DNA of 10,718 bases from a virus (Duplodnaviria > Heunggongvirae > Uroviricota > Caudoviricetes), in the IMG/VR virus record IMGVR_UViG_2541047968_000015, positions 1-10,718 of that record, one strand, 5' to 3'. Positions within the stretch are counted from its first letter, which is position 1, and each line of letters begins with the position of its first letter. The notes under the pieces are model-generated. The model searched no databases, was not told the origin of the DNA, and saw nothing but the letters and a program-made list of their open reading frames with translations. The translations under genes were made by a program, and so were the position numbers. Positions 1,622 to 6,211 of this stretch are shown in pieces.

Positions 1622-1842
1622 GCCACACCTCCCAGACGCTTAAACATTTTTCCGGAGCAAAAGGCTATAAGCGGCATACTGACGCGGTAATTACGGCCCA
1701 GCGGTTCACAAATCACCTTCTGACATTCACGGTCAACCAGGCTAACACGTAGAACATGCCCTGCAGGCGTGGTGTACCACTGACCCGGACGAGGACAACG
1801 GAAAGTATGATTGGTAAACCGTTTGAAAATATTCCGGATCAT
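1618..1842 (-). CDS. Hypothetical small protein (74 aa)
   Basis: ORF whose ATG (1842-1840) overlaps the Rha-like stop (ATGA); coupled within the leftward operon. No family recognised. Confidence 0.5.
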   Translation of the reverse strand: MIRNIFKRFTNHTFRCPRPGQWYTTPAGHVLRVSLVDRECQKVICEPLGRNYRVSMPLIAFCSGKMFKRLGGVA

Positions 1843-2384
1843 TTGCGCCCCCTTACCTCTGAAGGGTTCAGCGACAAATTTATGAGACTGGCCAGTAGCG
1901 CCGCGTCGTTGATGCGGTCATACAGACTTACAGCCAGCGGGGATTCGGCTTTTGCCAACATGGGATAAAGCTGCTGCAGCCAGACCTTGTGGATTACCGA
2001 CAGGTGGGAGTAAAGCACGCTGGCGTTATCTGCGGCATCGCTCAGCGTGGATGGCTTTGAAAGCAGTTTTTCCATCTGGTTAAAGGCATTGATGTATGCC
2101 TCTTTGAACTGGGCAGCACGTTTACCCGTGAAACCCATAGCAAGAAACGCAAAGCCGTCGCGGGTTATTTGATAGCAAGGTAGTTTGCGGCCTGTGCAAT
2201 CGGTGTAATCACTCACCGAAAAATTGCGGGCAGTGAATGATGCGGAACATTCAAGCGTGCGGATCTTTTTCAGTACATCGTCATGACGTTTGGAGAAGAA
2301 GTTGGCAACAGCCAGGGATGAAGTAACAGCCTGACCATCAACGATGGCAATTTCAGGTTGAGTGAGGGTTGGGATCGTAGCCAT
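1839..2384 (-). CDS. rha: Phage regulatory protein Rha-like (pRha domain), 181 aa
   Basis: Internal ATG at 2384-2382 preceded by GGAGG with an 8-nt spacer. The protein starts MATIPTLTQPEIAIVDGQAVTSSLAVANFFSKRHDDVLKKIRTL ... YQITRDGFAFLAMGFTGKRAAQFKEAYINAFNQME, matching the Rha family signature (F.KRHD.VL..IR ... DGF.FL.MGFTGK.A..FKE.YI.AF). The ORF track merges it with a 201-codon upstream in-frame extension. Confidence 0.8.
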   Translation of the reverse strand: MATIPTLTQPEIAIVDGQAVTSSLAVANFFSKRHDDVLKKIRTLECSASFTARNFSVSDYTDCTGRKLPCYQITRDGFAFLAMGFTGKRAAQFKEAYINAFNQMEKLLSKPSTLSDAADNASVLYSHLSVIHKVWLQQLYPMLAKAESPLAVSLYDRINDAALLASLINLSLNPSEVRGRK

Positions 2385-2987
2385 GATGGCAGCCTCCGTA
2401 TGCAATGGATAACTTCCACCACCGGAAACGCCAATTTCGCTGGTGGTGAACTGAGCAGGGTTGGCGTAACCGGCGCATACGGAAACCGGCGCACCTTTCG
2501 GTGCCCCCACCCAGCCCACCATAATTTGGGTATAGCTGAGTTGTAGCAACAAAAAAGACGCTAACGCGCCAATTGTCGCCGTATGCAATTCCAGGACGCC
2601 AATCCCGACACCCGCTTTATAAGGTGCCTGAACAGTGTAACGTCCCGGAATGGCAGAATCAATGTGCTGGTGGTCCTTCACACTCAACAAAATCACGCCT
2701 GAATTTCCACAAAGGACTAAAGCACTCATGCTGGTAGTCTTTGCGAAGATAGATAACGCGCTGTGTTTCTGGCTCCCAACGAATAACATGGACATAAAGC
2801 CCTCTTCCGTCACGAAACCAGCGGTTAAGTTCCTGCACAACTCGCCCCCCACAGTCAGGTAAAGTTCTCTGTGGTTACTTACAGCCAGGTGATTTGGTAA
2901 TCTGCATTCATGCCGTAACAACAGGTGTTCAGCGACGCTGACCACCAGCTGTTGCGACAAACGGTTATTTGCCGTTAAACTATTCAT
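2385..2987 (-). other. In-frame open segment (201 codons) between the YdaT-like and Rha-like genes; coding status unresolved
   Basis: ATG at 2987-2985 overlaps the YdaT-like stop (ATGA) and the frame runs without a stop into the Rha ATG. The translated sequence is low in charged residues (about 11 percent), rich in S/L/A/G/V, and matches no family I recognise. Could be a real N-terminal domain, a separate or fused gene, or a fortuitously open frame. Confidence 0.3.
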
Positions 2988-3541
2988 GCGTTAGTTTCTC
3001 CACAACCAGAAGCAATCGACGCCACGACGCCCGGAGCTGCACACTCGCGGGCGTTACTATTTTCTGGAGCGCAGAAGATTTTGTAGACCAGTGCTGCATG
3101 CTCCTGGAGCTTCGAAATTGAGAGGTACAGCTCGTCGTTAATTGCTGTCTTCTCATGCGGTTCCACTACACCGTCTTCGATTGCTGAACGAATCTGTCTG
3201 GAATAACTGCCGATCTGTTCAATGACTTCCAGCAGACGCTGGTTAATATCGGCGTTGTCCACATCCTCGACGTCAGGAAGAGACACAAAGACGCCATTTG
3301 CAGACTGCGCCACAGCGTCAGCAATGAAGTGAGTTCCACCAGCACGTTGTAAAATCATTGCCCATCCCAGCGGGAAAATCTGATCGCCATCTGCACGAAG
3401 GCGGTTGAATAATGCGTTCTCTGTTACATCCAGCCACTCAGCAGCTTCAGCGTAACCCCCCGGCAACGCCGCGATAGTTTTTCTGACAGCTTTCACGTAC
3501 CACTCAGGCTGTTTTTCCACTTTCCAGTGATGATTACCCAC
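2984..3541 (-). CDS. CII-like / YdaT-like regulatory protein (185 aa)
   Basis: ORF with GTG start (3541-3539) preceded by GGAGG with a 6-nt spacer, overlapping the end of the cro-like gene. Its position directly after the cro-like gene matches lambda cII or Rac ydaT; the family assignment is by position and weak recollection only. Confidence 0.55.
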   Translation of the reverse strand: MGNHHWKVEKQPEWYVKAVRKTIAALPGGYAEAAEWLDVTENALFNRLRADGDQIFPLGWAMILQRAGGTHFIADAVAQSANGVFVSLPDVEDVDNADINQRLLEVIEQIGSYSRQIRSAIEDGVVEPHEKTAINDELYLSISKLQEHAALVYKIFCAPENSNARECAAPGVVASIASGCGETNA

Positions 3542-3794
3542 GGCTTACCTCCTGTTCCTGTGGTTTAAACCCATTCTGGTTTTGGCTAGATTGAAAACGT
3601 GCCGGATAAAGAATCTGCATTTCGCTGATTTCACCCTTAAAAAAATTGGCCAGACGTTCTGCAAGATCGATAGATGGAATTTGTTCCAGTCTTTCAATAC
3701 GACTCAGCGTCGCTGGATTGACCTGAACGCCCGCAGCAACATGCTGCAAAGTAAATCCGTGCGCCTTACGCACATTCCGTAATGGTGATTGCAT
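3534..3794 (-). CDS. cro: Cro-like HTH (XRE-family) transcriptional regulator, 86 aa
   Basis: ORF with ATG at 3794-3792 and GGAGG 5' of it. Helix-turn-helix motif (GFTLQHVAAGVQVNPATLSRIERLEQIPS). Divergent from the repressor gene across a 97-bp operator region. Confidence 0.8.
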   Translation of the reverse strand: MQSPLRNVRKAHGFTLQHVAAGVQVNPATLSRIERLEQIPSIDLAERLANFFKGEISEMQILYPARFQSSQNQNGFKPQEQEVSRG

Positions 3795-3891
3795 ATAACC
3801 TCCACATATTGCGTGATGAGCATATTATTTCACGCAAATATTTTGCGCAAGTTGATTTGCTTAACGCGCAATAAAGAAATGTAATAAACGC
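3795..3891. promoter_or_regulatory. Divergent immunity-region promoter/operator segment (PR-like for cro; cI promoter unresolved)
   Basis: Minus-strand promoter candidate: -35 TTGCGC (complement of 3845-3850), 17-nt spacer, -10 TAATAT (complement of 3822-3827). Inverted repeat TTGCGTGA-N13-TCACGCAA at 3809-3837 overlaps the -10 and start region. Palindrome TTGCGCAA at 3843-3850. A 15-bp TTGC-N7-GCAA site at 3857-3871. Confidence 0.6.
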
Positions 3892-4584
3892 ATGAACATA
3901 GGAAACCGAGTCAGACAACTTCGCCAGGCGAAGAACATGAAAATCGCCGATCTCGCTGAAGCAATAGGAGTGGATGCGGCGAATATCTCACGCCTGGAAA
4001 CAGGTAAGCAGAAACAATTCACTGAACAAGCCCTGAGTAATATTGCCAGGAGCTTAGGTGTTGATATTGCTGATCTCTTTACCTCAGACGTCAAAAGTAA
4101 TACTGTATGTAAAAACAGTATTAGTGAGGATGTTGCGCAGGTGAAGGATGTATTCCGTATTGAAATGCTGGATGTCAGTGCCAGTGCGGGAAATGGCCTT
4201 ATCCAGGGCGGTGATGTCATTGATGTGATTCATGCCATTGAATACAGAACTGATAATGCTGTATCGATGTTTGGTGGACGACCAGCAAATCACATTAAAG
4301 TTATCAACGTTCGTGGGGACAGTATGTGTCCAACCATTGAGCCAGGAGATCTCATCTTCGTTGATATCAGTATCAATCAGTTTGATGGGGATGGTATATA
4401 TGTATTTGGTTTTGATGATAAAATTTACGTCAAACGACTGCAAATGATACCTGATAAACTGCTGGTAATTTCTGATAATCAGATTTACCGCGAATGGGGA
4501 ATTACCAGCGAAAACGAACATCGGTTTATGGTCTTTGGAAAGGTCTTAATCAGTCAGTCACAAACCCTTAAGCGACACAATTAA
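3892..4584 (+). CDS. cI: cI-like prophage repressor, N-terminal HTH plus C-terminal S24 (LexA-like) peptidase domain, 230 aa
   Basis: N-terminal HTH (MKIADLAEAIGVDAANISRLETGKQ). C-terminal S24 signature with catalytic Ser in GDSM (VINVRGDSMCPTIEPGDLIFVD) and downstream Lys (IYVKRL). Divergent from the cro-like gene. Confidence 0.9.
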   Translation: MNIGNRVRQLRQAKNMKIADLAEAIGVDAANISRLETGKQKQFTEQALSNIARSLGVDIADLFTSDVKSNTVCKNSISEDVAQVKDVFRIEMLDVSASAGNGLIQGGDVIDVIHAIEYRTDNAVSMFGGRPANHIKVINVRGDSMCPTIEPGDLIFVDISINQFDGDGIYVFGFDDKIYVKRLQMIPDKLLVISDNQIYREWGITSENEHRFMVFGKVLISQSQTLKRHN

Positions 4585-4605: not shown

Positions 4606-4630
4606 AGCCACCAGAAGGTGGCTTTTCATT
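4606..4630 (+). terminator. Rho-independent terminator downstream of the repressor gene
   Basis: Perfect 7-bp stem AGCCACC (4606-4612) / GGTGGCT (4617-4623) with loop AGAA, followed by TTTCATT. Confidence 0.8.
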
Positions 4631-4640
4631 ACCCACCAAA

Positions 4641-4694
4641 TTGCATATCTCGCAATAAAAACACTTGCATAATGCGCAACTTCATTTTATCTTT
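4641..4694 (+). promoter_or_regulatory. PL-like operator pair and candidate rightward early promoter
   Basis: Two 15-bp TTGC-N7-GCAA sites (4641-4655 ttgcatatctcgcaa; 4665-4679 ttgcataatgcgcaa) share the half-site motif of the cro/cI intergenic sites. Candidate -35 TTGCAT (4665-4670) and weak -10 TATCTT (4688-4693) with a 17-nt spacer. Promoter hexamers are weak; the operators are the firmer observation. Confidence 0.45.
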
Positions 4695-5123
4695 CTTTCC
4701 AGACCTACAAACAAGGTACTAACAAAATTTGGTTGTAACACGGCGTATGGCACATGCGTCGTTAGCGGTCTGGGGACGTTAAAGGGGACAATCCACTCCT
4801 TGCTCGGGCAAACAAACCAGGTAGCCGGAATGTGCAAGTCAATGAGGATGCTGATAAGACGCCTAACCAGCGTGGCGATTCGGTTTGACGCCTGGGAAGA
4901 GACCAGGACGCAACGATGAGAGCATTTATGGAGCCGCGACAAAGTGTGGTGCCGTAACTGGCTAAGTGCTCTCAGCGTTGTGGTGAATGCGCAGGCTGAT
5001 GCGCGAAAGACATTGCAGCTATTGCGGAAAAGAGCTGTTCGGCGGGGCAATTAAACGCCCGTGAGAGTCTGAAATAACCGCAAGCCGGAGATCAGCACCG
5101 GTCACCACAACAGCCACTGCTTT

Positions 5124-5170
5124 GGCGGTACCAGTTTGTACACTTGCTTCCGGCTGGTACCGCTCTTTTT
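5124..5170 (+). terminator. Hairpin with T-tract (candidate intrinsic terminator or attenuator) in the leader of the rightward operon
   Basis: Perfect 10-bp inverted repeat GCGGTACCAG (5125-5134) / CTGGTACCGC (5154-5163) with a 19-nt loop, followed by TCTTTTT (5164-5170). The loop is long for a canonical terminator. Confidence 0.45.
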
Positions 5171-5259
5171 ACAAAACAGAGAAGAGCATCACCGGACGAC
5201 GGGCTCATAACCCAATCCATCCGGGCGGCTGCCACCGCAGGTGTTCTTCTCTGTTTTGT
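5171..5259. repeat. Perfect 15-bp inverted repeat with 59-bp spacer, immediately upstream of the RdgC-like RBS
   Basis: ACAAAACAGAGAAGA (5171-5185) and its exact reverse complement TCTTCTCTGTTTTGT (5245-5259). The left arm abuts the T-tract of the preceding hairpin; the right arm ends about 22 nt before the GAGGAAAA Shine-Dalgarno. Confidence 0.7.
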
Positions 5260-5293
5260 GGAGAAACTAATACATTGTGCAGAGGAAAATAGA

Positions 5294-6211
5294 ATGAAAT
5301 TACCAAAATTTCGTAACGCAATTGTGTACCGAGCAACATTACCTAGTATACAGGCTATTGAAGGTCATCTTCTCGAACTCCCTTATTCTGAAATCGGGGA
5401 AACAGAATTTTCACGGTCCTCTTTTGTAGAGAATCCTGTCACTGGTGAACTGGTAACTCCGATATCTGGTGGGTACGCAATGGTAATCCGTCATGATCAG
5501 AAAATAATTCCCCGACATGTCGTCATGAAAGAAGCTAATTCTCGAATCCAAACAATCGAAAATATGTCCGGGAATAAATTAAAGCGTGCCGAACGACTGG
5601 CCATTATTGATAACGTACGAGTAGATCTATGCAAACAGGCATTTGTTAAGTCTACTCTGATTCTTGCATTGTACAGCACTGATGAGAAATTATTGGTAAT
5701 CAACACAACCAATAAAATAATAGCCGGTATGGTATGCGCAATGCTGATTAAGGTTGTCGGTTCAGTGAAAACAGAAACAATCAACATCAGTGATATCAAG
5801 AATGGACTGACTACACGCCTGAATAACTACATCAATGGTGCAGCCAATGCATTTGAAGGATTCACTGTCGGAAATTATATTCAGCTATCACGCTACGCAG
5901 ATCAAAAGGAAATTATTCGCTACTCAGCTGAGCATGAGTCAATTCAAAGCGAACTGGCCGATAGCCTTAGTAGTAGTTTCACTGCTGATAAAATGGAGTT
6001 ATCCGGTTGCGGTGTGACCTTCATTCTTACCGAAAATTTCCATTTTTCGCGCATCAATACTCAATCTCAGACATTTAATGATGAAGATGATAAAGCATTC
6101 CAGTGGCGTCATCAGACTGGCGCTGACCTTTTCCAATTCAGCAAGGTAGTTAATTTGATGTGTGACCTTCTTTCTTACAAAGAAGATAAAAGCCAAAATC
6201 CAACAACTTAA
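5294..6211 (+). CDS. RdgC-like recombination-associated DNA-binding protein (305 aa)
   Basis: ATG at 5294 preceded by GAGGAAAA. The N-terminus MKLPKFRNAIVYRATLPS parallels RdgC (MLWFKNLMVYRLS...), and further blocks (AMVIRHDQKIIPRHVVMKEANSRIQTIE; LILALYSTDEKLLVINTTNKIIAGMVCAMLIKVVGSVKT) align with my recollection of E. coli RdgC. The track's TTG-start extension (5144) is rejected. The gene is noticeably AT-rich relative to its neighbours. Confidence 0.8.
   Translation: MKLPKFRNAIVYRATLPSIQAIEGHLLELPYSEIGETEFSRSSFVENPVTGELVTPISGGYAMVIRHDQKIIPRHVVMKEANSRIQTIENMSGNKLKRAERLAIIDNVRVDLCKQAFVKSTLILALYSTDEKLLVINTTNKIIAGMVCAMLIKVVGSVKTETINISDIKNGLTTRLNNYINGAANAFEGFTVGNYIQLSRYADQKEIIRYSAEHESIQSELADSLSSSFTADKMELSGCGVTFILTENFHFSRINTQSQTFNDEDDKAFQWRHQTGADLFQFSKVVNLMCDLLSYKEDKSQNPTT

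Follow-up and report, generated by a model that had tools for sequence, protein, structure and literature searches.

A probably repressor-controlled tandem array of folded RNA modules, two of them tRNA-shaped, ahead of an RdgC-family gene in a lambdoid phage

What does a phage keep in some 660 nucleotides (nt) of early leader if it keeps no protein there? The question is raised by positions 4631-5293 of a 10,718-nt stretch of DNA from a tailed phage (Caudoviricetes; IMG/VR record IMGVR_UViG_2541047968_000015), the whole of which is referred to as the window. The window contains a lambdoid immunity region, with an integrase farther along past an RdgC-family gene, and the segment in question stops exactly before the ATG (5294) of that rdgC gene. 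The segment is a probably repressor-controlled tandem array of four conserved, folded RNA modules, termed D1, TL1, TL2 and TL3, all on the plus strand, and two of them are shaped like transfer RNA (tRNA). Positions 4727-5270 fold to -215 kcal/mol, compared with -185 ± 5.6 kcal/mol for dinucleotide shuffles (z = -5.4), and compensatory changes well beyond controls are found in D1, TL2 and TL3. The plus strand is the functional RNA, because the invariant G-U pairs of D1 and TL3 become A-C mismatches on the opposite strand.

The segment is non-coding. Open reading frames (ORFs) of 20-122 amino acids (aa) occur on both strands and some are annotated in databases; for example, mEp460 and other phages carry hypothetical-protein annotations over this region. 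A small divergent N-like or other peptide could be sought among them, such as the annotated 122-aa or 47-aa minus-strand ORFs, and in a PHROGs search of the ORFs the 47-aa one (window 5092-5235, minus strand) matches phrog_3651, a family of unknown function. That family was probably built from ORF calls over the 3' end of TL2, the terminator and TL3 RNA, and it looks spurious because the 47-aa ORF is not conserved among homologues. Pfam gave no match for any ORF of the segment. The five longest ORFs are intact in 18, 3, 9, 0 and 9 of 32 full-length homologues, the broken copies having frameshifts of -7, -6 or +10 nt and internal stops. Indels in the segment are not multiples of three, variable sites fall on the three codon positions as 30/35/29 and 57/45/49 with no excess at the third, and the substitutions are compensatory in RNA helices. 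A coding role is hardly credible on these counts. The initial annotation was right to find no plausible protein in any frame, and the divergent N-like protein that it had retained as an alternative is refuted. A pseudogene of the HNH/zinc-ribbon type, suggested by the string HCSYCGKEL, was also considered and rejected: the zinc-ribbon matches were sub-threshold, on a 25-aa ORF, with no conservation.

The evidence for RNA structure comes from folding and from comparison across homologues, as the initial annotation had proposed. The sequence sets for D1, TL2 and TL3 were gathered with exact sequence anchors, by which part of each alignment is fixed, and the parts of TL2 and TL3 that vary freely (the internal "cargo" of TL2, replaced by AAAA, and the third hairpin of TL3) were cut from the alignments. 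Shuffle controls ignore phylogeny; controls in which the pairing partners were slid along the alignment retain relatedness, and these were clearly lower for all three modules.

D1 (4738-4915, plus strand) is a structured RNA of about 178 nt with five helices, including a pseudoknot, supported by covariation. It is made up of a hairpin, H1, a long-range helix, H2, that surrounds variable hairpins, a hairpin, H3, whose loop pairs downstream as H4 (the pseudoknot), and a further hairpin, H5. The segment GGUAGCCGGAAUGUGCAAG is invariant. A scan of viral contigs with an invariant 19-mer yielded 79 distinct versions, from which 27 representatives below 93% identity were taken. In these 98.1% of cells are paired, and 58 cells are changed on both sides compared with 17.7 ± 3.6 in shuffles, a value reached in none of 500. 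The covariation score is 0.280 versus 0.126 when shuffled and ≤0.07 once the 3' partners have been moved along by 1-3 columns. An alternative register for the pseudoknot was rejected, with 27.8% of cells paired versus 100% in the adopted one. RNAalifold also returns an invariant long-range helix, GCACAU/AUGUGC, that competes with H1; of the two, covariation is found in H1 only. Among 125 contexts of D1, TL1 and a tRNA-Arg come next in 26, TL2 follows in 22 and TL3 in 38, and a tRNA-Met(CAU) lies directly before D1 in 17.

TL1 (4919-4972, plus strand; fold z = -3.7) forms a hairpin in which the strands AGAGCAUU/AAGUGCUCU close a variable interior. These strands are conserved, and the interior differs among phages; in phages swi2 and Magnus it contains a canonical T-arm, GGUUCGAxUCC. 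Covariation evidence for this module is weak.

TL2 (4979-5109, plus strand) is a tRNA-shaped scaffold supported by covariation, and the same architecture is obtained in the single-sequence fold. A 7-bp acceptor-like stem (4979-4985/5103-5109) encloses a D-like hairpin with loop AGGCUGAU (4989-5004), the cargo, which forms a three-way junction (5005-5083), and a T-like hairpin with loop AGAUCAGCA (5084-5102). Scanning viral contigs with 20 nt of the 5' block recovered 125 instances in 91 distinct versions. These share the frame 5'-NNNGGUGAAU-GCGC-AGGCUGAU-GCGC ... AA-GCCGG-AGAUCAGCA-CCGGC-CACCNNN-3', and the cargo, about 40-200 nt long, is unrelated between versions. When 80 scaffolds were tested, 95% of cells were paired and 13 pairs showed compensatory changes; 95 cells are changed on both sides compared with 21.6 ± 3.8 in shuffles (0 of 500). 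Pairing reaches 98.4% in the acceptor-like stem, 98.0% in the T-like and 99.1% in the D-like stem, with compensatory changes in all three. In 84 of 90 versions all seven pairs of the closing stem can form, and 27 different strand combinations are seen.

A 7-bp stem stacked on a 5-bp 3' hairpin, with a 3-nt linker and a 4-bp 5' hairpin carrying an 8-nt loop, is the predicted geometry of a tRNA minus the anticodon arm. The two loops contain GCUGAU and AUCAGC, which are complementary with six possible Watson-Crick pairs, and in the model this loop-loop pairing could stand in place of the D-loop/T-loop elbow. In the TL2 variant of phage ST64B the loops read GCUCAG and AGGCA and are not complementary. 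The strongest single argument for kinship with tRNA comes from phiV10-type phages. There, homology to D1 and TL1 runs up to ...GCGUUGUGG, and a genuine tRNA-Arg(UCU) starts exactly at that GUGG, so that a tRNA replaces TL2 at the same nucleotide. ARAGORN reports a transfer-messenger RNA (tmRNA) with the tag AKAVRLRKCSFRCGECAG* in the T1-like phage swi2 (locus L006, 1911-2285). The call fuses TL1/TL2 sequence with the 3' half of a tRNA-Met and is almost certainly false, the tRNA-like modules having misled the program.

The cargo differs from phage to phage and in a few cases can be recognised. In some phages it is a copy of the 16S ribosomal RNA (rRNA) helix at nt 237-283 (Rfam SSU, E = 1e-5 and 2e-7), and in another it is a tRNA body, complete except for the anticodon arm (34 bits with the tRNA model); the loci concerned are L106 4600-4646, L117 624-670 and L095 3978-4026. 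Such cargos suggest that the module presents mimics or decoys, an argument at the level of the family with no direct bearing on the cargo of the window. In the latter, one compensatory change is found in a relative, CGGGGC/GCCCG to CAGGGC/GCCUG.

Downstream of TL2, a hairpin with a 13-bp stem (GCGGUACCAG.../...CUGGUACCGC) followed by UCUUUUU is found at 5125-5170 (plus strand; fold z = -4.8). By its sequence it qualifies as an intrinsic (Rho-independent) terminator, although a simple terminator scanner passed over it, the loop being longer than 8 nt. A hairpin and T-run of variable sequence lies directly 5' of TL3 in nearly all homologous leaders. TL3 itself (5171-5259, plus strand; fold z = -7.3) is an armless mini-tRNA-like fold supported by covariation. 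Its closing stem has 15 perfect pairs and extends to about 20; inside it are an anticodon-arm-like hairpin, with a GGG/CCC stem and the loop CUCAUAA (5204-5210) that presents CAU (5206-5208), and a small, variable third hairpin. The hairpin with U-tract and the long perfect inverted repeat noted earlier ahead of the rdgC ribosome-binding site (RBS) are these two elements. Among 39 distinct versions of TL3, 95.9% of cells are paired, 53 cells are changed on both sides compared with 18.1 ± 3.2 in shuffles (0 of 500), and covariation is 0.180 versus ≤0.065 in slid controls. The TL3 core has also been detected in Klebsiella phages, where it occupies the slot directly after tRNA-Asn and tRNA-Arg, downstream of Q. 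In that version GGCCUG/CAGGCC form a 6-bp acceptor stem and (A/G)CCA is encoded; it is modelled as an armless mini-tRNA within a tRNA array. The version in the window has no CCA.

TL3 is followed by a conserved tail, GGAGAAACUAA (5260-5270, plus strand), which is seen after TL3 in about 45 distinct contexts with differing downstream genes. Homology with other phages stops at 5270, a mosaic joint. In general the conserved GGAGAAACYAAC lies 3' of TL3, usually followed by a small hairpin with a UGCAG loop and then by the Shine-Dalgarno (SD) sequence and ATG of a variable first gene. A 15-mer that includes the tail, TTGTGGAGAAACTAA, is present at 5256-5270 (plus strand) and again at 3005-2991 (minus strand), just upstream of a 382-aa Ash/Rha ORF. 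It may be an RBS or junction motif shared by both early operons.

Where else do these modules occur? The whole segment is found by blastn in mEp460 (99%), in Stx2a, Stx2k and Stx2c phages, and in cdtI, 2H10 and Ayreon. Parts of it have separate distributions. The counterpart of window 4740-4983 lies between head genes and tRNA-Arg in phiV10-type phages, that of 4727-4904 immediately follows trnI in P1, with ban downstream of it, and that of 5123-5270 is present in SfV, SfII, ST64B and others. A 40-nt core at about 4964-5010 is shared at more than 90% identity by a T1-like phage, a 157-kb Klebsiella phage of the Ackermannviridae, and Erwinia, Edwardsiella and Cronobacter phages. The modules recur separately in tRNA arrays of P1, epsilon15-like, T1-like and Ackermannviridae phages; in swi2 they adjoin tRNA-Met. 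About 25 of the 125 viral-contig contexts of TL2 have co-oriented tRNAs within 1 kb, some at a distance of 5-12 nt; over viral contigs and bacterial genomes together, the gap is in places 3-12 nt (L014, L075, L111 and L318). Neighbour-ORF clustering of 255 TL2 contexts identified two common homes. The first is downstream of a cI-type repressor on the same strand, as in the window (61 contexts, 26 of them from diverse bacterial genomes), and the second is upstream of lysozyme, in the late leader (29 contexts).

The exact 5' block of TL2 is found in 117 species-representative genomes from Proteobacteria and beyond. The hosts include Enterobacterales, Aeromonas, Pseudomonas, Halomonadaceae, Moraxellaceae, Xanthomonadales, many Burkholderiales, Thauera, Gallionella, Methylophilaceae and some Alphaproteobacteria, as well as metagenome-assembled genomes of Geobacteraceae, Acidobacteriota and Phycisphaerales. 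The 3' block lies within 450 nt of the 5' block in 87 of 119 species-genome instances, nearly always with 7/7 pairs in the stem. In a Massilia genome TL2 abuts tRNA-Gly, and a tRNA-Pro comes after TL2. Judged from these sequence distributions, the segment is a mosaic of independently mobile RNA modules.

Strong mosaicism, and the resemblance of TL3 and TL1 to degenerate pieces of tRNA, could also mean that the segment is a decaying remnant, an eroded tRNA array or recombination scar without function. The E. coli K-12 prophage CPS-53 (L434, 5247-5605) fits such a view in that it keeps homologues of the early-left genes, yfdP-yfdT and torI, and lacks the RNA region; short direct repeats (GATTTTGACGGGTCAGA-like) are found in its yfdO-yfdP spacer. 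Erosion is nevertheless very improbable, given that the helices of D1, TL2 and TL3 are maintained by compensatory changes, that 20-nt blocks are invariant across bacterial classes, and that 2838 of 5426 complete E. coli genomes contain a match.

The modules might instead be parts of one large ornate RNA, with D1, TL1 and TL2 (about 370 nt, or about 520 nt with TL3) acting together in the manner of GOLLD and ROOL and bearing variable inserts at the periphery. They are contiguous, their junctions are conserved (CAAC..AGAGCAUU; UCUCAGCGUU/UCUUUCCGUU), and conserved cores do carry variable inserts. They are also found near phage tRNA islands, where a tRNA can replace TL2, and GOLLD has been described in similar terms (PMC12286853). 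However, modules are found singly (D1 in P1, TL2 in many contigs, TL3 after tRNAs), no long-range pairing between modules was found, and the Rfam models for GOLLD and ROOL gave no match. A single large RNA is for these reasons improbable.

Searches of RNA catalogues returned nothing for the segment. With the Rfam 15 covariance models at gathering thresholds, the check that the initial annotation had suggested, there was no match in it, and the sole matches in the window were C4 and isrK, which lie elsewhere. Relaxing the threshold to E ≤ 10 gave noise only between 4500 and 5400, with no match to the models for tRNA, GOLLD, ROOL or C4. ARAGORN found 0 tRNA or tmRNA genes in the window. The modules do not recur elsewhere in the window, and complementarity of the TL2 cargo to the rest of the window is at chance level only. 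No description of the modules or their core sequences was found in a literature search that did not cover all journals. The structured phage RNAs of the segment are real and strongly conserved, and the set is apparently uncatalogued. Two published phage RNAs were set aside as relatives. The M3 RNA of phi80, a known RNase P substrate, is an oop homologue and unrelated, and the Pas small RNAs (Zhu, Shabalina and Storz, bioRxiv 2026) are located in the late region and are set apart by position only.

How is the array controlled? It lies 3' of a cI-like repressor gene (3892-4584, plus strand; helix-turn-helix (HTH) and S24 peptidase domains by Pfam), which is accompanied by a cro-like HTH gene (3534-3794, minus strand), and a terminator scan places the terminator hairpin of the repressor gene at 4606-4623 (plus strand), 3' of its ORF. 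The segment then opens with two operator-like palindromes, TTGC-N7-GCAA, located by pattern search at 4641-4655 and 4665-4679, as had been noticed at first reading. A third lies at 3857-3871 in the cI-cro region. The window holds four such palindromes versus 0.58 expected, a number reached in 0 of 200 shuffles. In sequence they conform to a lambdoid operator set common to the PR/PRM and PL regions. A putative PL-type promoter was identified by eye on the plus strand, with a -35 element TTGCAT (4665-4670), a 17-nt spacer and a -10 element TATCTT (4688-4693), which would place the transcription start near 4700; it falls below detection by a consensus scanner. ST64B has an equivalent operator pair in the same place and a counterpart of the promoter, TTGCGC-17-TAATTT, in identical register. 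In that phage (L128, 1828-2642) an unannotated gap of about 800 nt holds the same order of cI, terminator, operators, RNA modules, terminator and TL3, with a divergent first module. At the other end of the array in the window, the SD sequence GAGGA and the ATG of the RdgC-family gene (Pfam RdgC, E = 5e-31) span 5283-5296 (plus strand). The PR side of the window contains overlapping cro/CII-type ORFs.

This position, directly downstream of an operator-controlled promoter where lambda has nutL and N, invites a cis-acting explanation, in which D1/TL2 or TL3 acts on polymerase or the terminator and gates the operon from rdgC to xis-int as a put-like element or attenuator. Such control may coexist with RNA genes. 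HK022 put consists of two stem-loops of about 70 nt. Both put and the lambda nut-N system resemble the segment in placing an RNA element directly downstream of a repressor-controlled leftward promoter and before a terminator. In the segment there is no N gene and no conserved ORF next to PL, in which it differs from lambda N/nut. A strong terminator stands between promoter and first gene, and the order of terminator, TL3, GGAGAAAC tail, UGCAG-loop hairpin and SD is fixed in about 45 contexts with a variable first gene. The two commonest homes of TL2, the post-repressor leader and the pre-lysis leader, are classical antitermination sites. The sequence CGCUCUUUUUA at 5161-5171, which overlaps the U-tract of the terminator, resembles boxA; the likeness was seen by eye and is a lead only. 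However, modules are also present where no gating is needed, in the tRNA arrays of virulent T1-like and Ackermannviridae phages, between head genes of phiV10 and before ban in P1. The HK022 nun-cI-cro region gave a best blastn match to 4631-5293 of E = 0.16, so that no similarity to the PL-nun region of HK022 is seen, and no second copy was found on the PR side of the window, whereas put and nut occur as L and R pairs. Cis control as the chief function is possible but rather unlikely. The put-like antitermination RNA suggested by the initial annotation is not supported. Its broader idea of an RNA-level control element holds as far as action through RNA is concerned, given the compensatory changes and the plus-strand G-U pairs; a single operon-specific leader does not agree with mobile modules in tRNA arrays.

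The segment is probably a PL-type, repressor-controlled transcription unit whose main products are RNAs, tRNA-like and processed like tRNAs, and not a protein. Upon derepression the plus strand would be transcribed from about 4700 through D1, TL1 and TL2 as one precursor. Most transcripts would end at the 5125-5170 terminator, and those that read through would continue into TL3 and the genes from rdgC to xis-int. Host tRNA-maturation enzymes would cut the precursor, RNase P at the acceptor-like stems together with 3' trimming, to give stable small RNAs. C4 is one of the non-tRNA phage RNAs that RNase P is known to process (PMC11143913); cleavage at the 5' end of the acceptor-like stem is suggested here by geometry and array position. 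TL2 would then serve as a chassis that displays a variable cargo RNA, and in early lytic growth the RNAs could work as mimics or decoys that engage the tRNA- or rRNA-handling factors of the host.

A number of observations weigh against this proposal. An encoded NCCA comes after the TL2 stem in no more than 8 of 90 versions, T-Psi-C is missing from the 9-nt T-like loop, and neither ARAGORN nor the Rfam tRNA model recognises TL2 or TL3. The loop-loop pairing shows one compensatory case, ACUGAU/AUCAGU, the D-like loop being fixed by the search pattern and hence barely variable. The cargo of the window has no Rfam match. Expression, processing and stability of the modules are all inferred beyond fold and conservation. 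The fixed order from terminator through TL3 and tail to the RBS of the first gene has a cis-regulatory look and not that of a free RNA gene. Cis control is kept as an alternative because a transcription unit for tRNA-like RNAs leaves the passage of polymerase through the terminator, and the position of TL3, unexplained.

Relatives of the array carry a further element that is absent from the window. These tmRNA-like "tag modules" have been detected in P1 (L003, about 340-470), swi2 (L006, about 1745-1840), Klebsiella phage Magnus (L005, about 1700-1810) and about 20 IMG/VR loci. A conserved leader, GUUUUCGU..GCGACUUUGCGG..UUUAGAAACUGACCACAAAGAUAAAU, precedes 10-codon ORFs that encode ANDDLMMVAA*, ANDDVVLMAA*, ANEEMYLAVA*, ANDEQFLAVA* and others; the nucleotides vary and the type of peptide is kept. 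In P1 the tag module lies in the ban operon, directly 3' of a dicF-like terminator. Canonical acceptor pairing was not found in the tag modules, and Rfam tmRNA matches to them were sub-threshold only. A tag ORF in D1 of the window (GCAAACAAA...) was considered and rejected, as its frame is not conserved. The small RNA family STnc100 (RF02076) is above threshold in Magnus (L005, 3571-3785) and below it in the ban operon of P1 (L003, 1571-1690). The Magnus and P1 ban regions are dense islands of several RNA genes.

A bolder form of the proposal can be offered tentatively, as a possibility that may well prove wrong. TL2 would be a natural, pan-proteobacterial phage "tRNA chassis" that is matured by the host tRNA machinery and stabilises interchangeable cargos, among them the 16S rRNA helix mimic and the tRNA body of relatives, with aptamers as the others; the cargos would be decoys against factors of host defence or of translation. 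D1, as a ribozyme or sensor that goes with tRNA-like genes, would make up another new class of RNA, and the tag modules of relatives would be a rearranged phage tmRNA. If the reading of the segment as RNA genes is correct, much phage "intergenic" DNA would consist of conserved RNA genes, present in over half of complete E. coli genomes and also in P1, Stx-converting phages and prophages of more than 100 bacterial species. A tRNA-derived architecture of this kind escapes current annotation tools, and spurious proteins are sometimes called over the modules. A near-invariant TL2 frame with hypervariable cargo would point to a universal host partner and to modular deployment of RNA mimics. This has implications for phage tRNAs, anti-defence RNAs and large phage RNAs of unknown function.

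With which known systems can the array be compared? Phage tRNAs and their arrays share with TL2 the 7-bp closing stem stacked on a 5-bp 3' stem-loop and the 4-bp 5' stem with an 8-nt loop. TL2 stands in a row with tRNA genes of the same orientation and is exchanged for a true tRNA-Arg in phiV10-type phages. TL3 adds a CAU anticodon-type stem-loop and, in its array version, an acceptor stem and CCA. Unlike a tRNA, TL2 has 40-200 nt of variable cargo in place of the anticodon arm, its T-like loop lacks GTTCRA, its D-like loop lacks GG, and the two can form six Watson-Crick pairs with each other; CCA is seldom encoded, and the standard tRNA detectors are negative on TL2 and TL3. An engineered "tRNA scaffold" for recombinant RNA in E. 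coli, in which the RNA of interest replaces the anticodon arm, was reportedly introduced by Ponchon and Dardel in 2007. Like TL2 it uses acceptor, D and T parts as a chassis, with an insert to be processed and stabilised like tRNA. It is man-made and a canonical tRNA, whereas TL2 is natural, non-canonical and known here from sequence alone.

The C4 antisense RNA of P1 and P7 (RF01695), a known RNase P substrate (PMC11143913), likewise belongs to temperate enterobacterial phages and has two hairpins within a closing stem. Its second hairpin, GCCGG...CCGGU, and the end of its 3' strand, ...UCACCAC, resemble those of TL2, a likeness judged by eye only. It differs in its 17-bp closing stem, the absence of cargo, its other loops and its antisense action on its own operon, and the C4 model does not match TL2. 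A genuine C4 is present in the window at 2439-2526 (minus strand, 80.7 bits), together with isrK at 2551-2627 (minus strand, 58.9 bits). Both sit within the 382-aa ORF (1839-2987, minus strand), in the part that encodes its Phage_ASH domain (aa 117-212), with a Rha domain after it; RNA genes and Phage_ASH domain thus share one stretch and one strand.

GOLLD and ROOL are large structured RNAs of phages and prophages, of unknown function, often near tRNA islands and sometimes with embedded tRNAs (PMC12286853). Like the segment they combine conserved and variable parts, are phage-encoded and lie near tRNAs. They differ in that there is no match in sequence or structure, the hosts are different (Proteobacteria here) and the modules described here are also found one at a time. 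The segment belongs to no Rfam family, is not a tRNA by standard detectors and is not a homologue of put. Its closest relations in shape and context are tRNAs, with C4 close in architecture and in features judged by eye, and GOLLD and ROOL in lifestyle.

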